From an uncultured Victivallis sp. (GTDB lineage: Bacteria > Verrucomicrobiota > Lentisphaeria > Victivallales > Victivallaceae): a stretch of 64,000 bases of DNA. The notes beneath the pieces were generated by a model that saw only the letters and a program-made list of their open reading frames with translations, was not told the origin of the DNA and did no database searches. Shown piece after piece: positions 31,340 to 39,905 of the stretch. The stretch lies in NCBI RefSeq assembly GCF_944389935.1, contig NZ_CALXOE010000010.1. One strand, written 5' to 3'. Made by a program: the position numbers and the translations under genes. Within the stretch, counting starts at the first letter, position 1; every line of letters starts with the position of its first letter.

Positions 31340-34300
31340 TCACTTGCTACTCGATTCTCCTGATTTTTTCCGAGTTTCCCGCTCATCCGCCGCGCGGGGA
31401 GAGAGAAGCCGGAAAATCTCGCCTGCGACCGGGACCAGCCGGGCACCTTCGACATAGACCGGAGATTCGGTCAGCGGGAGAATGACGATACCGTTCCGAT
31501 CGGCAGTCAGAAGTTTCGTTTCACCCACGACGTCGGTCACCCGAATGGATTTCCCGTTTTCCGCAGTCAGGGCCAGCGGTCGCGGAGGCGTCACATCCGT
31601 TGCGACCCACGGAGCGCGGTGAAATCCCTGCGGGATGATGGCCTCCTGTTCACGCAGGCCGTCTTTCCGACTCCAGAGTACCGCGAATTTGCCGTTGGGT
31701 CCCTTGTCGAACAGCAAACCGCGCGCATCGGGGTCCTCGAATTGCAGATCGCCGAGGAATTCACCGGGATCGAAAAATTTCGCCGCCGTCTGATAAGCCC
31801 AGAGCGGAACTTTCGGCATCCAGTCGCGATGGAACAACCCGAAATGACACTCCCGTTTCCGATCCTGTTTCACATGAGTGCCGATCAGATGCGGCGGTTC
31901 AAAGTCGTTGAACATGTAGAGCATGACGTTCTTCACGTCGGCGGCGACTGCGAGAGCCATCTGGATACAGAGGTCGTCGGCGGTGGTACGCTGATTGTTC
32001 GTCACACCGAAATTCGGACCGCTTGCGCTGTACAATTCACTGATGTACAGCGGCTTGTCTCCGAATTCACGGGTTGCTTCCCGAATGGTTTTCAACGTCC
32101 CGAGGTAACTCCAGTAGGAGTCGTCGTTCTCCGGAGAACGGGTGATCCCGGCAGCGTGGAACGCGAGGTAGTCGAAATCATCCCAGGCCCCTTTTTCGTA
32201 AACAGTCCGCATATAAGGCATGTCGCCGTTGGCGATGGAGAGCCCGGTCAACTTGATCTCCGGGAAATCCCGGTCCCGGACTTCGCGCAGCGCCGAAGCG
32301 TAGAATGCGTACACCTCCGCAAGTTTCGCCTTTCTCTCTCCGCCGGAGAGATTCCATTCGTTGCTGAATTCAAACACTTCCGACCCGGATGCACGGGTAT
32401 TCTTCAGGTTGCCCGCCATAAACTTCTTCACGCTTTCCCGGTTCGCAAGCCAGCTGTTTTCTCCACGGGCATGGCGCAGGACATTGTCCCAGTCTCCGAT
32501 GTTGTTGTGATACCAGGTCCTGATGCCGAGAGAATGCGCAAGCTCCTCGTATCCATAGCATTGACGGACCAGAGAAACGCCGATTCTGCGCATCATCGAC
32601 AAAACCTGCTCCGGCGTCCGCGACTCTGTGACCTGCCCCGGGTTGTTGCGCCAGCCGGTCATCCCGATGCGCGACATCTTTCCCGCCCGGAAACGGTATT
32701 CCGGCAGATACCCCCCGCAGACCCGCCGATAATCACCGGCATATTCGTGCGAAGCGAAAATATCAAAGAATACCGGCCCCGGCCGCGTGATCTCGACGGA
32801 AATCGGGATGGAACACTCCGCCTCAGCTTCGACGATGTTGGACACGGTGTCCTCGCGCAGAATATTTCCGTGAAAGTCATGCACCACATAATGCAGGTCG
32901 ATCCGCTGCCGTTTCCGGAAATAATTCCCGACGTGAGCCTGCAGGCGGTAGGTACCGGGCTCTTTCAGCAACCAGAACGGGTCCGGGGATTCGACCTCCA
33001 TGAGCAGCCGTTCATCTCCTGCCCGCGCCAGGGCCTCGCGGCGGCGCGCCCCCTGATCGGGGCGGACGGAAAACGCAATCGTCCCGGAATAAAAATCCGG
33101 AGCCCAGGGCAATCGCGCCAGATTGACCGCCACCCGGAGTTTGCCGTCCTGCCAGAATTCCGGCCAGGTCGGGCTCTCCCCGCTGACCGCGATAGCGGCG
33201 TGCCCCCGCTCTCCCCCGAATTCAATGACCTGTCCGCGGATTTTTTCCTCTGGCTCGCCGCCGGTTCGATGCAGATAGAACCGTTCCGGTGAGAACCGCG
33301 CCGTCTCCCGGATTCCGGCAGCGGGGATGAAAGGAACCGCGCAGAGATTTTTCCCCCACTCCTGCGGAACCTTTCCGGACGGATAAATCCGCAGTCGCGC
33401 TCCCTCCGGAAAAAGCGTCCACTGCAGCAGGTAGAGTCTCCCGCCCTTCTCATTCAGCGCCTCGACGCCGAACACCTTGCTGCTCGCCCCTTTCACGTCC
33501 GTTGCGGTGGGGATCATACGGTAATCGATCCGCGGCAGTTCAGGATTGTCATCTTCGAGCGCAACGCCGCGAAATTCCGCCGGAAGTTCCGCCCGGCCGG
33601 GCAACTCCGGAACGCCGATCATTCCGAGCGGATGCCACGCCCCGTCGTCATTCCGGAACTCCACACTGGTGAATCCGTCGGCATGGAACGTCAATTTCAT
33701 GCGCTCATTTTCCAGGATCTCGATCTGTCCGCGTTCCCGCGTCCGCAACGCACCGCGATCGACGAATGCGAGGTCGGCAATCTTGAGCACGCCGTGCGTA
33801 TCGTGCCCCGGAATTACTTCAAAGCGGATCTGAACGGGAGGCCGATCGGACTGCAGTCTGATGTTCCCGACTTTCCTCGTTCTGCCGGATTCCAGGTCGG
33901 TCACGCTCAAGTCGAGCAGTCGATCCGTATGAATCAACTCGGCTTTCACACGATACCATGTCTCATCCCGGACGGGGAGATCTCCCGGAAGAAATCCGCC
34001 GGGAACCGTCCGCAAATAACGTCCACCGAGTTCGGCGACGGTTTCCCCGCTCGAATCAAGCAGCGTAATCCGGAATGAATACGGGTTCTTTTCCTTTCCC
34101 CATCCCGGCGGGGAAAATTTGAAATCATAAGAGAGCTCCCAAGCCTCGCTCGGCTCAAACCGCGGAGAACACGCAATGGCGGGATCCCCTGCCCAATCGT
34201 AATCCTGCAACATCAAAACCGCCCGTTTGCCATCCCGCGAAATCCCCGCAGAAGTATAGCGCTCCCCGTTGCGATGTCCGCTGAACGTCCAGCGTTTCGC

Positions 34301-34411
34301 AATTTCCGGAGACTGGAAACTCTCTTTCAGAAGGACTCGTCCCTCATTTGCGCCCGCCGAGACACGGGAGAACATCAGGATACAAAAAACAATCCCCGTC
34401 CAAAACTTCAT
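31340..34411 (-). CDS. Large secreted modular protein with clan GH-A (GH39/GH5-like) catalytic domain
   Basis: Signal peptide; FEFSNEWN acid/base, LAFHAAG, LYISEL nucleophile. Confidence 0.65.
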   Translation of the reverse strand: MKFWTGIVFCILMFSRVSAGANEGRVLLKESFQSPEIAKRWTFSGHRNGERYTSAGISRDGKRAVLMLQDYDWAGDPAIACSPRFEPSEAWELSYDFKFSPPGWGKEKNPYSFRITLLDSSGETVAELGGRYLRTVPGGFLPGDLPVRDETWYRVKAELIHTDRLLDLSVTDLESGRTRKVGNIRLQSDRPPVQIRFEVIPGHDTHGVLKIADLAFVDRGALRTRERGQIEILENERMKLTFHADGFTSVEFRNDDGAWHPLGMIGVPELPGRAELPAEFRGVALEDDNPELPRIDYRMIPTATDVKGASSKVFGVEALNEKGGRLYLLQWTLFPEGARLRIYPSGKVPQEWGKNLCAVPFIPAAGIRETARFSPERFYLHRTGGEPEEKIRGQVIEFGGERGHAAIAVSGESPTWPEFWQDGKLRVAVNLARLPWAPDFYSGTIAFSVRPDQGARRREALARAGDERLLMEVESPDPFWLLKEPGTYRLQAHVGNYFRKRQRIDLHYVVHDFHGNILREDTVSNIVEAEAECSIPISVEITRPGPVFFDIFASHEYAGDYRRVCGGYLPEYRFRAGKMSRIGMTGWRNNPGQVTESRTPEQVLSMMRRIGVSLVRQCYGYEELAHSLGIRTWYHNNIGDWDNVLRHARGENSWLANRESVKKFMAGNLKNTRASGSEVFEFSNEWNLSGGERKAKLAEVYAFYASALREVRDRDFPEIKLTGLSIANGDMPYMRTVYEKGAWDDFDYLAFHAAGITRSPENDDSYWSYLGTLKTIREATREFGDKPLYISELYSASGPNFGVTNNQRTTADDLCIQMALAVAADVKNVMLYMFNDFEPPHLIGTHVKQDRKRECHFGLFHRDWMPKVPLWAYQTAAKFFDPGEFLGDLQFEDPDARGLLFDKGPNGKFAVLWSRKDGLREQEAIIPQGFHRAPWVATDVTPPRPLALTAENGKSIRVTDVVGETKLLTADRNGIVILPLTESPVYVEGARLVPVAGEIFRLLSPRAADERETRKKSGESSSK

Positions 34412-34569: not shown

Positions 34570-35346
34570 TCACTCCGGGATGGAGAGTACAAGCACTCGC
34601 ACGCCACGTTTTCGCAACGCGGCGACGACGGGATGTTTCCGCGGTTCAAAATCGGTGATGAGAAGCGAGATTCTACCGGCGTCAACGCTGCGGCACAGAG
34701 CTTTTCCGCCAAGTTTCGCCGAGTCGGCGACGACAATCAGCCGATCAGAATTCTCCACCATCTTCCGCTGAAGTTCCGCCGCGTCCTCCCGGTTGTCGTA
34801 AAGGAAATCCGCGTCGAGCGCAGTTCCGGAAATGACTGCCGCATCGGCATGGAAATGTTCTATCGTGCGAACAGCCTCCGCCCCGGTCAGAATCTCCGAC
34901 TTCCGGTTGTAAACTCCGCCGGTCAGCTGCAACAACGGCATCGGTTCCCCCGAACCGGTGCAGCTCCATAACAGAGCCAGAGAGTTCGTGATGATCCGCA
35001 ATTCCGGGCGGGCCAGAAAATGACCGAGTTGCGCGGTCGTGGTTCCCCCGTCGATAAATACACATCCGCGCTGCGGCAATTCCGCCGCGACCGCCTCGGC
35101 GAGTTTGCATTTCACTTCGCGCCGCCACCCCTGCCGGAGACCGATCGGAAGTGCCGGATCTCCACGGAAATCCGCGGCCCGGATCCCGCCGTGAAATCGG
35201 CACGCTTCCCCACTCGTCGCCAGGAGCTCGAAATCACGGCGAATGGTCGCTTCACTGACTCCGAAACAGCGGGCGGTTTCGACACTGTTCAGAATCTCTC
35301 CCCGACGCAACAGCCGGATCATTCGTTGGATTCGATCTCGTTTCAT
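34570..35346 (-). CDS. DeoR/GlpR-family transcriptional regulator
   Basis: FGVSEATIRRDFELL HTH, RFHGG, FIDGGTT, ITNSL, VADSAKLG; start set at ATG 35346. Confidence 0.93.
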   Translation of the reverse strand: MKRDRIQRMIRLLRRGEILNSVETARCFGVSEATIRRDFELLATSGEACRFHGGIRAADFRGDPALPIGLRQGWRREVKCKLAEAVAAELPQRGCVFIDGGTTTAQLGHFLARPELRIITNSLALLWSCTGSGEPMPLLQLTGGVYNRKSEILTGAEAVRTIEHFHADAAVISGTALDADFLYDNREDAAELQRKMVENSDRLIVVADSAKLGGKALCRSVDAGRISLLITDFEPRKHPVVAALRKRGVRVLVLSIPE

Positions 35347-35395
35347 ATTGATACTGTAGCGGGAAAGCGACATTTTGCAAGCGGTAAAATGATCG

Positions 35396-35418
35396 AACAA
35401 TCACTTTTTTTGATTGTT
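35396..35418. promoter_or_regulatory. Candidate DeoR operator in divergent intergenic region
   Basis: AACAATCA-N7-TGATTGTT perfect inverted repeat; an extra GATTGTT half-site lies nearby. Confidence 0.55.
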
Positions 35419-35526
35419 TACAAGATTTTTTTCTGATTTTGACCGGTTTCGATTGTTTTCCATTCAGATACAGCTACACTAAAGACGCAGCAGAATCCAT
35501 CCATCAGTAAATCGAAAGGAGAAAGG

Positions 35527-37920
35527 ATGCCGAGATTTTTCAAAGTTGTAGGCCACCGGGGAATGCCGTCACGCTACCCGGAAAACACCCTGCCCTCGTT
35601 CAAAGCCGCCATCGAAGCCGGAGTCGATGCCATTGAATTCGACGTGCATCCGACCTGCGACGGACGGTTGGTGGTGACGCACGACGATACGCTCGAACGA
35701 TGCAGCAACGGCAGCGGTCCGGTTCATGACCGGACTCTGGCGGAACTGCGCAAACTCGATTTCGGCTCGTGGAAAGGAGCTGCGTTCGTCGGAACGCAAA
35801 TACCGGTATTGGAGGAAGTTCTCGATCTCGCATGCGCCATGAGCGATACGCTTGAACTGTTGATCGAACTCAAGGAAGACGATGAACGGTGCGCGCTGGC
35901 CGTGCTTGAGGAGATCACGCGCAGGGGGATTCTTGATCGAGTCGTCATCCTCTCATTCTATGCAAATCTGCTGAAACAACTGCATGAACGGGAACCGCGA
36001 CTGCGTCTGCAGGGATTCCCGCTCAAAGTGTTTGCGCGGCCGGAACAGGATGCGTACGAGTGGCTTTTCCGGCTCTGCCTCTGGCGGCAGGAGATCACCC
36101 GGGAAGAGGTCGATGCGTTTCATGCGCGCGGAATCGAAGTCGATGTCTGTCCGGTGGACAGCGGGGAAGATCTCGAAGCGATCCGGAATCTCGAAGTCGA
36201 TACCGTGACCACCAACGCCGCGGACGTCTTGATGCCGCTTCTGCGGGAATCGGGATTGCGCCCCGCTCCGCTGCCGCGCGAATACACGGCATGGCGACTG
36301 CATGGAAGCGGACTCGACCAGCTGCTGCCGGAACGACTGCCGCTGCCGGAGCCGGCCCCCGGGGAGATCCTGGTGCGCATCGATGCGGTCGGGCTCTGTT
36401 TTTCCGACATCAAAATCATTCGCGCGGGCGCAAATCACCCGAAACTCAACGGCCGGGACCTCCATGCCAATCCGCTTACGCCGGGCCATGAGGCGGTGAT
36501 GACCATCGTCAAAACCGGCAGCGCCGTTCCGCTGCGTTATGCTCCCGGCCAACGATTTCTGATTCAGTGCGACATCTACGTCAACTCCCGCAGCTGCGCC
36601 TACGGTTATGCAATGAACGGCGCCTATGCCCAGTACGGTGTGATCGACGAACGGGTCTGGCGCGGGGAAGGACGCAGTTATCTGCTCGATTTTCCGGAGA
36701 CGCTTTCCTGCGTCGCCACCGCTCTGATCGAACCGTGGAGCTGTGTGCGCGGGTCGTACGGGATCGAGCATCGAAACGCTCCCCGGCCGGGAGGCCGCAC
36801 ATTGATCGGCACCATCACCGGAGCGGACAATGTACTCCGGGCGGGGGAGCTTTTCCGCACTTCGGCTCCCGGCGAAATCGCCGCATTCGGGCTTTCCGAA
36901 GCGACCGTCCGGAGTCTGGAAAAGGAGCTCGGCCGTGAGGTTGCGCGGCTGACCGCGATTCCTGCGGGAGAAGAGTTCGATGACGTCGTCTGCTGGAATG
37001 TGACGGATCCGGGTTTGGCCGAGGCGCTGGCCGGGCTCGCGGGCGCACACGGCATCGTCAATTTTCTCGGAAAAACGCCGTCCCTTCCCTGTCGGATCGA
37101 TGTGGGCGCTCTTCACTACCGGAATCGGTACTATCAGGGTGCGCCCGATGGAGAAATCTCCGCGCTTTACCGCCGGAAGCGGCGAACCGGCCTCCTCGCC
37201 GGCGGCAACGCCTGGTTCATCGGAGGAGCCGGAGCGATGGGGCAGATGCACGTTGAACTGGCAATTTCCGGTCCGGAGAGCCCCTCCCGTATTCTCGTCA
37301 CGGATCTCGATGCGGAGCGGCTCGAACACCTGAAGCGGCAACTTTCCCCGCAGGCTGCGGCGAAAGGGATCGACCTGAAATTTCTGAATCCCGCTGCCAT
37401 CGAACCGGAACGCTTTACAACGGAGCTCCACTCTTTTGCGCCGGAGGGATTCGACGACGCGGTCATTCTTGTTCCGAGTGCGGCACTGGTCGAGGAAGCG
37501 GCCGGATTCCTGCGCGATGGCGCACTGGTCAATGTGTTCGCGGGAATTCCGACCGGCGAGAGCGCCTTGCTCGATCTCGCCGCGATCACCGAACGGGGAA
37601 TCCGCTACACCGGATCGAGCGGCAGCAGTTTCGACGATATGGCCGAAACTTTGCGTCTCGCCGCAGCCGGGGAGTTTCACCCGGAACGCGCTCTCGCGGC
37701 GATCGGCGGGATGAATGCACTGAAAAAGGGATTGGAAGCGGTTGCGGCGGGGCGTTTTCCCGGCAAAACCGCCATTCTCCCGAACTGCCCGGATCTGCCT
37801 TTGACCTCGATTGCCGACCTCGGGAAACTCGATCCCGAACTCGCCGCCACCCTCGATGAGAGCGGCTGCTACACGATCGCGACCGAAGCGGCGCTGATCC
37901 GGAAATGGGGGAAAGCATGA
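35527..37920 (+). CDS. Fusion of glycerophosphodiester phosphodiesterase (GDPD) and zinc-dependent SorE-like sugar-phosphate reductase/dehydrogenase
   Basis: N-terminal GHRG, ENTLPSF, EFDV, HD, ELK; C-terminal DAVGLCFSDIK, PGHE, LIEPWSCV, GGAGAMG. Confidence 0.85.
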   Translation: MPRFFKVVGHRGMPSRYPENTLPSFKAAIEAGVDAIEFDVHPTCDGRLVVTHDDTLERCSNGSGPVHDRTLAELRKLDFGSWKGAAFVGTQIPVLEEVLDLACAMSDTLELLIELKEDDERCALAVLEEITRRGILDRVVILSFYANLLKQLHEREPRLRLQGFPLKVFARPEQDAYEWLFRLCLWRQEITREEVDAFHARGIEVDVCPVDSGEDLEAIRNLEVDTVTTNAADVLMPLLRESGLRPAPLPREYTAWRLHGSGLDQLLPERLPLPEPAPGEILVRIDAVGLCFSDIKIIRAGANHPKLNGRDLHANPLTPGHEAVMTIVKTGSAVPLRYAPGQRFLIQCDIYVNSRSCAYGYAMNGAYAQYGVIDERVWRGEGRSYLLDFPETLSCVATALIEPWSCVRGSYGIEHRNAPRPGGRTLIGTITGADNVLRAGELFRTSAPGEIAAFGLSEATVRSLEKELGREVARLTAIPAGEEFDDVVCWNVTDPGLAEALAGLAGAHGIVNFLGKTPSLPCRIDVGALHYRNRYYQGAPDGEISALYRRKRRTGLLAGGNAWFIGGAGAMGQMHVELAISGPESPSRILVTDLDAERLEHLKRQLSPQAAAKGIDLKFLNPAAIEPERFTTELHSFAPEGFDDAVILVPSAALVEEAAGFLRDGALVNVFAGIPTGESALLDLAAITERGIRYTGSSGSSFDDMAETLRLAAAGEFHPERALAAIGGMNALKKGLEAVAAGRFPGKTAILPNCPDLPLTSIADLGKLDPELAATLDESGCYTIATEAALIRKWGKA

Positions 37921-38855
37921 TGCCGACCTCCCCGGAAATCCTCGTATTCGGCGCCAATCCGGCCTGGCAGAAAACCCTCACATTCCCCCGGCTGACACCC
38001 GGAGCGGTCAATCGAGCCATATCTCTGGACGCCTATGCCGCGGGAAAAGGCGTCAACTTCTGTCGGGCCGCAGCCGGTCACGGGCGCTGTCGAACCCTGC
38101 TGTTCCAATTCAGCGGCGGAGAAAACGGCGCGCGACACGAAGCGGCGTTACGGGACGAGGGGATCTGCTTTCACCGAATCCGCACCGCGGCCGAAACCCG
38201 CTGCTGTCTGACCTGTCTGGACCGGACAACCGGAGAAATGACGGAACTCATCGAACCCTCTTCCCCGGTAACGCCGGAGGAAGCAACGGCTATGACCGCC
38301 GCCTTTTCCCGGAGTCTTGCCGACGCGACCGGCGCAGCCATCGTCGGAAGCCTGCCGGACGGGACGGATCCGAACCTCTATTGCGACATCATCCGACTTA
38401 TCAGGGAGAAAGGAGTTCCGGTCCTTATAGACGCCGCTGCCAATATAGTTCCGGCTCTCGATCTTGCGGAACAGTTTATTCTGAAGATCAACCGCCGGGA
38501 ACTTCAGAATCTGACCGGGGGAACGAGTCCGGCCGCAGCGCTGTCCGCCGCACGGGATCGCTGGCCCGGAGCGATTTTCGTCATAACGGGGGGGCCGGAA
38601 GCCGCATGGCTCGCCGTCGGGGATGAAACATATTGCTGCAAACAGCCGCAGCTTTCGATTCTCTCTCCGCTCGGAGCGGGCGACACCTGTTCGGCAGTAC
38701 TGTTCTCGGAACTGCTCTGCGGAACCCCATTGAAAGAGGCGTTCCGAATCGCGCTCGCGGCGGCCAATGCCAACTGTCTGATTCCGCGAGCGGGAACGTT
38801 CGATCCGGAAACACGCGATGCAATCGCTTCGCGTCTCTTCATCGAACCCTTCTGA
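37917..38855 (+). CDS. PfkB-family kinase (1-phosphofructokinase/tagatose-6-phosphate kinase-like)
   Basis: NPAWQKT, AAGKGVN, GSLP, LKINRREL, SPLGAGD; ATGA overlap. Confidence 0.88.
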   Translation: MMPTSPEILVFGANPAWQKTLTFPRLTPGAVNRAISLDAYAAGKGVNFCRAAAGHGRCRTLLFQFSGGENGARHEAALRDEGICFHRIRTAAETRCCLTCLDRTTGEMTELIEPSSPVTPEEATAMTAAFSRSLADATGAAIVGSLPDGTDPNLYCDIIRLIREKGVPVLIDAAANIVPALDLAEQFILKINRRELQNLTGGTSPAAALSAARDRWPGAIFVITGGPEAAWLAVGDETYCCKQPQLSILSPLGAGDTCSAVLFSELLCGTPLKEAFRIALAAANANCLIPRAGTFDPETRDAIASRLFIEPF

Positions 38856-38865
38856 AACGCAGAAG

Positions 38866-38902
38866 AAAAAACGGCCCTCTCCATCCGGAGAGAGCCGATT
38901 TT
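38866..38902. terminator. Bidirectional terminator between pfkB and fba
   Basis: A-run, CGGC-CTCTCC / GGAGAG-GCCG hairpin, T-run. Confidence 0.7.
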
Positions 38903-38924
38903 CTGATCGCTGAAGATCGATCGC

Positions 38925-39905
38925 TTATTTGTCGTAAGCATGGCCGGCAGAGCCGAGCACTTCGATGTTCTTGCGCTTGTAGAGCTCTTTCAGAGCGGTA
39001 CGGGCCGGGCCGAGATACTTGCGCGGATCGAATTCCTCCGGCTTCTCGTTGAAGACCTTGCGGATCGCGGCGGTCATCGCGAGACGGCCGTCGGAGTCGA
39101 TGTTGATCTTGCAGACCGCGGATTTCGCAGCGGCGCGGAGCTGATCTTCGCCGATGCCGATCGCGTCCTTGAGTTTGCCGCCGTTCTCGTTGATGATCTT
39201 GACCAGATCCTGCGGAACGCTCGAGGAGCCGTGCAGCACGATCGGGAATCCCGGGATGCGCTTTTCGATCTCGGCGAGGATGTCGAGACGGATCTTCGGA
39301 TCGTCGCCCGGCTTGAATTTGTAGGCGCCGTGGCTGGTGCCGATCGCAATCGCGAGGGAGTCGACGCCGGTGCGTTTGACGAAGTCCTCGACCTCTTCCG
39401 GACGGGTGTAGGTGTGCTTTTCCGCCTTGACATCATCCTCGATGCCGGCCAGAACGCCGAGCTCGCCCTCGACGGTGACGTCGAACTTGTGAGCGTATTC
39501 GACGACCTTGCGGGTCTCGATGATGTTCTGTTCATACGGCAGATGGGATCCGTCGATCATGACCGAGGAGAAGCCCATGTCGATGCAGCTCTTGCAGGTC
39601 TCGAAATCCGGACCGTGGTCGAGGTGCAGGCAGATCGGAATGCCCTTGCCGCCGGAAATCTCCTTGGCATATTCGACCGCGCCCTGAGCGAGGTAACGCA
39701 GCAGGGTCTGGTTCGCGTACTCGCGGGCGCCCTTGGAAACCTGCAGAATCACCGGGGATTCGGTTTCGACGCAGGCCTGGATGATCGCCTGGAGCTGTTC
39801 CATGTTGTTGAAGTTGTACGCCGGAATCGCGTAGTGGCCCTTCATCGCCTTGGCGAACATTTCCTTCGTGTTCACCAGGCCGAGATCTTTGTAGCTGACC
39901 GCCAT
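38925..39905 (-). CDS. fba: Class II fructose-1,6-bisphosphate aldolase
   Basis: AYNFNNMEQ, HLDHG, SVMIDGS, VEGELG, AIAIGTSHG, LHGSS, KINIDSD; start ATG 39905. Confidence 0.96.
   Translation of the reverse strand: MAVSYKDLGLVNTKEMFAKAMKGHYAIPAYNFNNMEQLQAIIQACVETESPVILQVSKGAREYANQTLLRYLAQGAVEYAKEISGGKGIPICLHLDHGPDFETCKSCIDMGFSSVMIDGSHLPYEQNIIETRKVVEYAHKFDVTVEGELGVLAGIEDDVKAEKHTYTRPEEVEDFVKRTGVDSLAIAIGTSHGAYKFKPGDDPKIRLDILAEIEKRIPGFPIVLHGSSSVPQDLVKIINENGGKLKDAIGIGEDQLRAAAKSAVCKINIDSDGRLAMTAAIRKVFNEKPEEFDPRKYLGPARTALKELYKRKNIEVLGSAGHAYDK

Follow-up and report, generated by a model that had tools for sequence, protein, structure and literature searches.

The glp regulon of Escherichia coli (GlpQ/UgpQ, GlpD, and GlpR) and the erythritol pathway of Brucella, with the polyol-phosphate dehydrogenase EryB, share a logic in which a diesterase acts first, the alcohol phosphate is then dehydrogenated beside its phosphate, and a repressor that senses a sugar phosphate is in control. 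In the acc system of Agrobacterium, the cytoplasmic phosphodiesterase AccF releases a sugar phosphate, which is the effector of the DeoR-family regulator AccR (PMC4526662). In this study, a 64,000-nucleotide stretch of contig NZ_CALXOE010000010.1 from an uncultured Victivallis sp. was analyzed (the window; positions below are those of this stretch). The window carries a cassette of three genes that encode a DeoR-family repressor, a glycerophosphodiester phosphodiesterase (GDPD) fused to a zinc medium-chain dehydrogenase/reductase (MDR), and a PfkB-family kinase. The cassette probably feeds a phosphodiester-linked sugar alcohol into glycolysis.

In guts, rumens, and sediments, much carbon and phosphorus is stored in polyols and sugars linked by phosphodiesters, for example in teichoic acids, many capsules, and glycans decorated with glycerophospho groups. 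The use of polyols from this phosphodiester pool by degraders outside the Firmicutes is poorly known, and the cassette is a compact, transferable three-gene candidate for it. The fusion, a pseudo-Rossmann insert in its dehydrogenase, the mobile three-gene cassette, and a family-wide pattern of fusions are new; the superfamilies and the pathway logic are already familiar. The initial annotation of the locus knew of no description of the fusion. No paper was found that describes the fusion architecture or treats the long MDR family; searches on SorE likewise gave nothing relevant.

The Three-Gene Cassette

In all fused loci examined, the DeoR gene and the fusion gene were divergently oriented. 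In the window, the ATG at 35346 was its likely start codon, and the reading frame stayed open up to a TTG at 35400. The best NCBIfam matches of the protein were of the GlpR (Halo), AgaR, and SrlR types, and all of them scored below the cut-off. The divergence and the operator described in the initial annotation were both found. The palindrome AACAATCA-N7-TGATTGTT in the divergent region was the sole perfect copy in the 3.64-Mb genome, and its half-site was common to the related loci L001, L006, and L015. The protein was assigned as a DeoR-family repressor by its HTH_DeoR and DeoRC domains, with the palindrome as its predicted operator. On the other side of the fusion gene, the ATG of the PfkB gene at 37917 overlapped the TGA stop at 37918–37920 in an ATGA, as the annotation had also noted. 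The same coupling of an MDR gene to pfkB was seen in L002 and L016.

A second full cassette was present in the same genome on contig C55 (G000:C55:10688–14967; L012:7689–11968), in a locus with GH20, rhamnosidase, and pectate-lyase-like genes. Its fusion protein was 83% identical to that of the window, and its DNA was 79% identical. This paralogue has the operator AACATTCA-N7-TGAATGTT. Its distance to the start codon is unchanged, and its two arms are altered symmetrically. A search of the genome for further operators gave good copies only at the two cassettes, and it indicated no transporter or extra enzyme.

The C55 cassette was compared with the fba-adjacent cassette of G133, a genome of another species. 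From the DeoR stop to the PfkB stop (4281 bp), the two were 98.7% identical in DNA. The flanks of the C55 cassette were 76–79% identical to G133 or had no match there, and a syntenic 10.4 kb of the window and G133 was 82% identical. The difference between cassette and flanks indicated that exactly three genes were recently transferred between species. Because exactly these three genes moved together, there is good evidence that the cassette is functionally self-sufficient. C55 as a mis-binned contig from a G133-like strain was considered and rejected, given that neither flank had the identity of the cassette. Around the C55 cassette, a segment of about 100–130 bp encoding an N-terminal methylation/pilin-like sequence (L012:2024–2160 and L012:15334–15494) had at least 40 matching places in G133; these matches reflect how large the family of pilin-like (DUF1559) genes is in this group of bacteria.

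The DeoR, fusion, and PfkB genes are one regulated unit, because the ATGA coupling recurs, DeoR is divergent in all fused loci, the operator is compensated in the paralogue, and the genes were transferred jointly. Our preferred but tentative reading is that this unit is a catabolic cassette, complete in itself and controlled by its repressor, which moves laterally and serves the use of a small phosphodiester after import.

Fusion Protein and GDPD Domain

The fusion gene was one continuous open reading frame of 797 amino acids (aa) without internal stops, with intact GDPD motifs followed by a zinc MDR, and the initial annotation was correct on this point. The dehydrogenase motifs that it listed were all present: GLCFSD (containing C291), GHE (320–322), and GGAGAMG (566–572). 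The domain-architecture search that it proposed showed that the fusion is real, and conserved but rare. In a search of 5.8 billion clustered proteins, about 28 full-length fusion clusters from NCBI, JGI, ENA, and Logan assemblies were found, counted at 90% identity; they were 793–807 aa long and 52–99% identical. Of the 150 best matches listed from a 50%-identity library with 1.84 billion representatives, only one spanned both domains. Among 301 genomes sampled across the phylum, 5 had the fusion: four belonged to the same genus as the window, and the fifth to a different family of that order. Lentisphaeria was the only source-given name on a full-length fusion, and stand-alone relatives were labeled Victivallales and similar.

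The ratio of nonsynonymous to synonymous substitution (dN/dS) was calculated between the two copies of this genome. The GDPD domain had a value of 0.12 and the catalytic MDR domain 0.14; the insert was at 0.19 and the Rossmann domain at 0.11. All segments of the fusion are under purifying selection.

The GDPD domain scored 121 bits against PF03009 (cut-off 23.6), and the whole profile (1–243) was covered. The model of the first 240 residues matched the structure 2pz0 in Foldseek with a template modeling (TM) score of 0.91 and an rmsd of 2.8 Å, consistent with the TIM-barrel fold of GDPDs. Residues H10, R11, E19, N20, E37, D39, H52, E114, and K116 aligned with the catalytic motifs of solved GDPDs. 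Across 20 fused orthologues, the last seven of these did not vary. H10 and R11 were kept in all orthologue rows that span them, one row (P0013) being without the N-terminus. The best NCBIfam match of the GDPD part was UgpQ. The fusion protein is cytoplasmic, because the catalytic HRG begins at residue 10 and leaves no room for a signal peptide. Judged by their conserved residues, both enzyme domains look active.

A separate diesterase was observed elsewhere in the genome. On contig C42 (G000:C42:29739–32067; L014:7740–10068), a stand-alone GDPD gene, whose product was 44% identical to the fused domain, was directly followed and overlapped by a gene whose product is a diverged GpsA-like, NAD-dependent glycerol-3-phosphate dehydrogenase. 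The pair looks like a two-gene route from a glycerophosphodiester to dihydroxyacetone phosphate (DHAP). By analogy, it would show the same logic of a diesterase followed by a dehydrogenase as the fusion. No match to GlpK or GlpD was found in the genome.

Long MDR Domain

The catalytic part of the MDR matched ADH_N at aa 278–376 (45 bits, cut-off 23.5, E 1e-11). The zinc ligands C291, H321, E322, and E402 and the GGAGAMG motif were invariant in 69 family members, and the structural-zinc lobe was absent. In a family profile search, sorbitol dehydrogenase and ketose reductase were the best matches. ADH_zinc_N was found at aa 588–713 with 24.2 bits, below its cut-off of 31.8, and D593 aligned with the Asp that specifies NAD in the sorbitol dehydrogenase of sheep. 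We infer an NAD+-linked oxidative role for the MDR because its zinc ligands are of the polyol-dehydrogenase type, the profile is closest to sorbitol dehydrogenase, and D593 aligns with this Asp.

The layout of an ordinary MDR, with a single Rossmann domain directly after the catalytic domain in about 340–360 aa, was not found. The whole protein was modeled with AlphaFold 2 on 69 sequences, giving a predicted local distance difference test (pLDDT) score of 92 and a predicted TM score of 0.73. The MDR model matched ordinary zinc MDRs (Foldseek, 4ejm, TM 0.81) and had about 180 extra residues, which the initial annotation had not noted; among the solved structures searched with Foldseek, no MDR carried this insert. 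Modeled alone, the insert had a pLDDT of 89, and its Foldseek matches were MDR coenzyme domains only, all of them weak (E about 4e-4, TM about 0.5). Because these are its sole matches and it has no glycine-rich loop, the insert (about 160–180 aa) looks in the model like a degenerate duplicate of the Rossmann domain that precedes the true copy.

The MDR did not score as a member of any NCBIfam equivalog; the best match was IolM, with 39.5 bits against a cut-off of 450. An inositol route was considered on this basis and rejected, the IolM match being weak and the kinase not IolC-like. The initial annotation had called the MDR SorE-like; the name sorbose-1-phosphate reductase on the relatives P0091 and P0142 came from automatic JGI labels only and was unconfirmed. 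As judged from its motifs and profile matches, the MDR is a divergent zinc enzyme of the polyol-dehydrogenase type and belongs to a distinct, uncharacterized long family of about 550 aa.

PfkB-Family Kinase

The kinase scored 160.9 bits with TIGR03168 (1-phosphofructokinase/hexose-phosphate kinase; cut-off 216.4) and 150.7 bits with TIGR03828 (cut-off 292), below the cut-off in both cases. The scores with 1-phosphofructokinase-type models were far higher than those with ribokinase, fructokinase, and 2-keto-3-deoxygluconate kinase models, and the first domain of rfaE gave 27 bits against 161. All PDB matches were the phosphosugar kinases LacC, FruK, and Pfk-2. The sequence places the kinase in the FruK/LacC/Pfk-2 clade.

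In E. coli Pfk-2, Arg90 and Arg29 hold the 6-phosphate of fructose 6-phosphate, and Asp14 binds sugar hydroxyls (PMC6429617). In an alignment with five cassette kinases, R29, T89-R90, G253, G255, and D256 of the GXGD motif (Pfk-2 numbering) were invariant. The position of Asp14 was Gln (NPAWQ) in all cassette kinases. The same residues were kept in an alignment of nine orthologues. Because the arginines are kept and Asp14 is replaced by Gln, the substrate of the kinase is probably a sugar that is phosphorylated or at least anionic, but not fructose 6-phosphate, fructose 1-phosphate, or tagatose 6-phosphate.

Long MDR Family and Its Partners

Stand-alone homologues of about 550 aa were common in Lentisphaerota and Kiritimatiellota and also occurred in Armatimonadota and Chloroflexota. 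The family had 288 representatives in several phyla (50% identity library, E ≤ 1e-30). A maximum-likelihood tree of 52 members was built and compared with the gene neighbors. Clade A (support 100/99) held all forms linked to a regulator or kinase, and PfkB was the most constant partner of its MDRs, even without a GDPD. The GDPD-fused form with both DeoR and PfkB was found in the window, C55, G133, G091, G052, and L002. Among the unfused members, L016 was the last gene of an esterase operon that includes PfkB, and L026 adjoined GH2 and GDSL esterase genes. In L006 and L015, the MDR stood behind a GmhB-like HAD phosphatase (168 bits, cut-off 178), together with DeoR, PfkB, an SSF symporter, and an IMPase-family gene. 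The fused forms were paraphyletic in clade A, with fused and unfused forms interleaved. This leaves two histories: an ancestral fusion with two later losses or replacements, or more than one origin of the fusion.

The search for split orthologs suggested in the initial annotation led to G002, where GDPD (57% identical) and long MDR are encoded by two genes with a single base in common (L018:8115–10882; G002:C1). This member had a long branch, and no DeoR or PfkB gene was nearby. The pair is a possible pre-fusion or split state.

Clade B followed taxonomy. Its gene order was the MDR, then an outer-membrane beta-barrel protein of about 900 aa, then HldD, and then RsmB. The third paralogue of this genome belonged here (G000:C5:105450–109868; L013:4230–10868); it was 47% identical and had no GDPD. 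Its cluster encoded an 899-aa outer-membrane beta-barrel protein with a weak CT351-family match, the ADP-heptose 6-epimerase HldD, and RsmB, and a PlsC-type acyltransferase gene was often upstream. The idea that the clade B MDR replaces a missing enzyme of heptose or glycerol-3-phosphate metabolism was rejected, as genes for GmhA, the HldE kinase, GmhB, and GpsA were all present.

Other fusions were found in the family. The long MDR was fused to a class II adducin-type aldolase in P0131, P0277, and P0278, and to a short-chain dehydrogenase/reductase (SDR) in P0153, P0326, P0368, and at least eight more clusters. P0240 (1137 aa) joined it to a GlpD-type FAD glycerol-3-phosphate dehydrogenase (DAO and DAO_C), and P0170 (921 aa) joined it to a sulfatase. 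A triad of aldolase_II, long MDR, and SDR was seen in four independent contexts (L056:5908–9788; L062:8001–11277; L063:4160–7517, counted together with L064; L065:7222–10594). It occurred in Armatimonadota and other phyla, with an aldolase of 259 aa and an SDR of 264 aa, either as aldolase-MDR and MDR-SDR fusions or as separate genes. No kinase gene was called next to the triad in the loci read.

Class II adducin-type aldolases, GlpD, and GDPD act on substrates with CH2-O-P beside a C2 hydroxyl or carbonyl, which are ends like those of sn-glycerol-3-phosphate (G3P) and DHAP. The recurring fusions of the long MDR with GDPD, class II aldolase, SDR, and GlpD hint at the chemistry of the family. 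That the GDPD, aldolase, and GlpD partners all handle such ends supports, by analogy, a phosphorylated substrate for the MDR of the cassette.

Proposed Pathway

In the proposed pathway, a small phosphodiester would be imported; fragments of polyol-phosphate polymers and glycerophospho-type compounds are the candidates. The GDPD domain would cleave the diester to a polyol phosphate with a G3P-like end (CHOH-CH2-O-P). The fused MDR would then use NAD+ to oxidize the hydroxyl beside the phosphate-bearing carbon, giving a product of the ketose-1-phosphate type. This conversion of a 2-hydroxy-1-phosphate to a 2-keto-1-phosphate would be the SorE reaction in reverse, and it would be the same chemistry as that from G3P to DHAP. 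The coupled PfkB kinase would phosphorylate the other end to a ketose bisphosphate, which the housekeeping class II aldolase would split. A phosphorylated intermediate would free DeoR from the palindrome and induce the cassette.

The initial annotation had drawn a similar route from a polyol phosphate over a ketose phosphate to an aldolase. Its domains and the regulated unit were retained, and the phosphate-binding arginines of the kinase fit the order of polyol phosphate, ketose phosphate, and bisphosphate; its argument from the neighboring fba gene was dropped. The annotation had also named a teichoic-acid or capsule fragment as the diester. Such polymers could be substrates only after import as small fragments, because the protein is cytoplasmic.

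Several points weigh against this pathway. Characterized GDPDs release G3P and a free alcohol, and the release of longer polyol phosphates is not established for this GDPD clade. The kinase falls below the family cut-off of 1-phosphofructokinase and has Gln in place of Asp14. No transporter was linked to the cassette, and the long MDR family is uncharacterized. Two fused members of clade A (L001 and L024) had DeoR and no PfkB. In L006 and L015, the HAD phosphatase occupies the slot of the GDPD, which suggests a free alcohol as the substrate of the dehydrogenase. The aldolase-MDR fusions also allow a reading in which the substrate of the MDR is the aldehyde that the aldolase releases.

A broader proposal is that the long MDRs are an unrecognized class that oxidizes G3P-like ends of polyol phosphates to ketose-1-phosphate ends resembling DHAP, with a GDPD-fused route to bisphosphates and a kinase-free route with aldolase and SDR. 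This is possible and rather doubtful at present. If it is true, the GDPD-long MDR proteins of Lentisphaeria would be a new cytoplasmic route from polyol fragments of the teichoic-acid or capsule type to glycolytic bisphosphates. The long MDR with class II aldolase and SDR in Armatimonadota and Chloroflexota would be a second route, without a kinase. The gain might be new enzyme activities on polyol phosphates and a better annotation for several hundred clusters that are now named "alcohol dehydrogenase catalytic domain-containing protein".

Alternative Explanations

The pathway could also run through a free alcohol. The GDPD would then act canonically and release G3P and a free compound (a polyol, glycerol, or a sugar), the MDR would oxidize this compound to a ketose, and PfkB would phosphorylate the ketose. 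In the sister operons, the HAD phosphatase would make the same free compound from its phosphate. This agrees with the established regiochemistry of GDPDs and with UgpQ as the best NCBIfam match. It also agrees with the GmhB-like HAD that stands immediately before the MDR in place of the GDPD and is under DeoR control of the same type, with the interleaving of fused and unfused forms in clade A, and with the symporter for neutral solutes that adjoins the HAD-type operon. Also in its favor, the genome has neither GlpK nor GlpD, so that free glycerol would need another route. The kinase speaks against it: the characterized members of its clade are all active on phosphosugars, and both Pfk-2 arginines were kept in 9 of 9 orthologues. 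Dephosphorylation followed by re-phosphorylation would also waste ATP, and the aldolase fusions and triads, beside which no kinase gene was called in the loci read, point to MDR relatives that act on phosphorylated compounds. The free-alcohol route is a serious rival that fits the conserved phosphate site of the kinase poorly, and we regard it as unlikely.

Plain use of glycerophosphodiesters would be the simplest chemistry. The GDPD would release G3P, the long MDR would be a new NAD-dependent G3P dehydrogenase forming DHAP, and PfkB would serve the alcohol moiety or an unrelated role. The fusion of a long MDR to GlpD in P0240, the GDPD and GpsA-like pair on C42, and the fusions without PfkB in L001 and L024 are consistent with this, and DeoR-family GlpR proteins are known to sense G3P. 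However, GpsA and a GpsA-like gene linked to a GDPD are already present in this genome. DHAP needs no kinase, and PfkB is translationally coupled and the most constant partner in clade A. This explanation is improbable.

Remodeling of heptoses or other sugar phosphates was also weighed. The substrate of the long MDR would be a heptose phosphate or sedoheptulose phosphate, attacked at its glycero-type end. Phosphates would be shuttled by PfkB and the GmhB-like phosphatase as in ADP-heptose synthesis, and the GDPD would trim a phosphodiester-linked heptose. In many genomes, the vertically inherited paralogue has as neighbors a gene for an outer-membrane barrel and one for HldD, which scores above the cut-off of TIGR02197. 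The HAD of the sister operons is GmhB-like, and the kinase domain of HldE is a member of the PfkB family. Against this, the genome has separate GmhA, HldE-kinase, and GmhB genes, and the cassette kinase matches the rfaE domain weakly beside its 1-phosphofructokinase score. DeoR control and the glycan-degradation neighborhoods point to catabolism. This explanation is likewise improbable.

An assembly join or a decayed fusion with an inactive GDPD remnant, either of which the initial annotation had listed as fatal to its reading, is effectively refuted: no point was found in its favor, the reading frame has no internal stops, full-length orthologues came from many independent assemblies, the catalytic residues were conserved, and the GDPD dN/dS was 0.12.

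Neighboring Genes

The initial annotation had noted that fba is adjacent and had placed an aldolase at the end of its route. The adjacency was confirmed. This fba was the sole PF01116 gene in a genome that is 99.7% complete; it was convergent with pfkB, and a strong hairpin lay between the two genes (Table 1). Among the loci compared, the one other case of fba beside the cassette was the syntenic locus of G133. A role as a dedicated pathway gene was rejected, and the adjacency is not evidence for the pathway, because this is the genome's one housekeeping copy and is convergent, with a terminator in between. Its product may still cleave the final bisphosphate.

Directly downstream of the DeoR gene, a separate transcription unit on the minus strand (31340–34411) encoded P0005, a secreted protein of 1023 aa without a Pfam match. 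In L021, L002, and L023, a GH5-like family of about 700–1090 aa adjoined the cassette. A large neighboring protein as a conserved partner was rejected, as P0005 was unrelated to these GH5-like proteins. The GH5-like neighbors are a general context of glycan degradation only.

Table 1. Positions of the cassette, its domains, and adjacent features in the window
Feature	Position	Strand	Basis or remark
DeoR-family repressor gene	34570–35346/35400	-	Pfam HTH_DeoR and DeoRC, both above cut-off
Candidate DeoR operator, perfect palindrome AACAATCA-N7-TGATTGTT	35396–35418	.	Sole perfect copy in the genome
Third half-site GATTGTT	35451–35457	.	The same CGATTGTTTTCC retained in the C55 copy
GDPD-MDR fusion open reading frame	35527–37920	+	797 aa
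GDPD domain, aa 10–233	35554–36225	+	Pfam PF03009, E 1e-34
MDR catalytic GroES-like domain, aa 256–404	36292–36738	+	Pfam ADH_N; predicted ligands C291, H321, E322, E402
Inserted alpha/beta domain, aa 405–565	36739–37221	+	Degenerate Rossmann-like, no glycine-rich motif
True NAD-binding Rossmann domain and C-terminal part of the MDR, including stop	37222–37920	+	GGAGAMG 566–572; Asp593 at the end of beta-2
PfkB-family kinase gene	37917–38855	+	Pfam PfkB; ATGA overlap with the fusion gene
GC-rich hairpin, bidirectional terminator	38872–38897	.	11 pairs, 8 GC, T-run; between convergent pfkB and fba
Class II fructose-bisphosphate aldolase gene fba	38925–39905	-	NF005481, 625 bits (cut-off 511); context only

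Comparison with Known Systems

The GDPD domain has the same fold and the same catalytic His/Arg/Glu/Asp/His/Glu/Lys set as UgpQ, the Thermoanaerobacter tengcongensis enzyme 2pz0, and GlpQ of Bacillus subtilis (5t9b). UgpQ is likewise without a signal peptide. Unlike the known GDPDs, the domain is fused to a dehydrogenase, and it is 33% identical to the nearest structure. A strand motif that is usually W-T-V-D/N in GDPDs is C/V-P-V-D/N in the fusion.

The MDR shares the Cys-His-Glu(-Glu) zinc site, the lack of a structural zinc, and the NAD-type Rossmann motifs with the sorbitol dehydrogenases 1pl6 and 3qe3. SorE, GatD, and TarJ are presumably zinc-MDR dehydrogenases of polyols or polyol phosphates as well. 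The MDRs of polyols and polyol phosphates have 340–410 aa, whereas the protein here has about 550 aa, and the sequence similarity lies mainly in the GroES-like domain. The cassette kinase shares the GXGD Asp, R29, and R90 with FruK, LacC, and Pfk-2; it differs from them by its 1-phosphofructokinase score below the cut-off and by Gln in place of Asp14.

The acc system (AccF, the phosphatase AccG, and AccR), in which an imported sugar phosphodiester is cleaved in the cytoplasm, is a functional precedent for the cassette. AccF is, we assume, a protein of the GDPD family. Unlike the cassette, the acc system has its own ABC importer and is without a dehydrogenase or a kinase. In the glp regulon and with EryB, the dehydrogenases GlpD and EryB are FAD-dependent, whereas the cassette has a zinc MDR. 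Compared with these systems, the cassette joins the diesterase and the dehydrogenase in one protein and adds a kinase that would form a bisphosphate.

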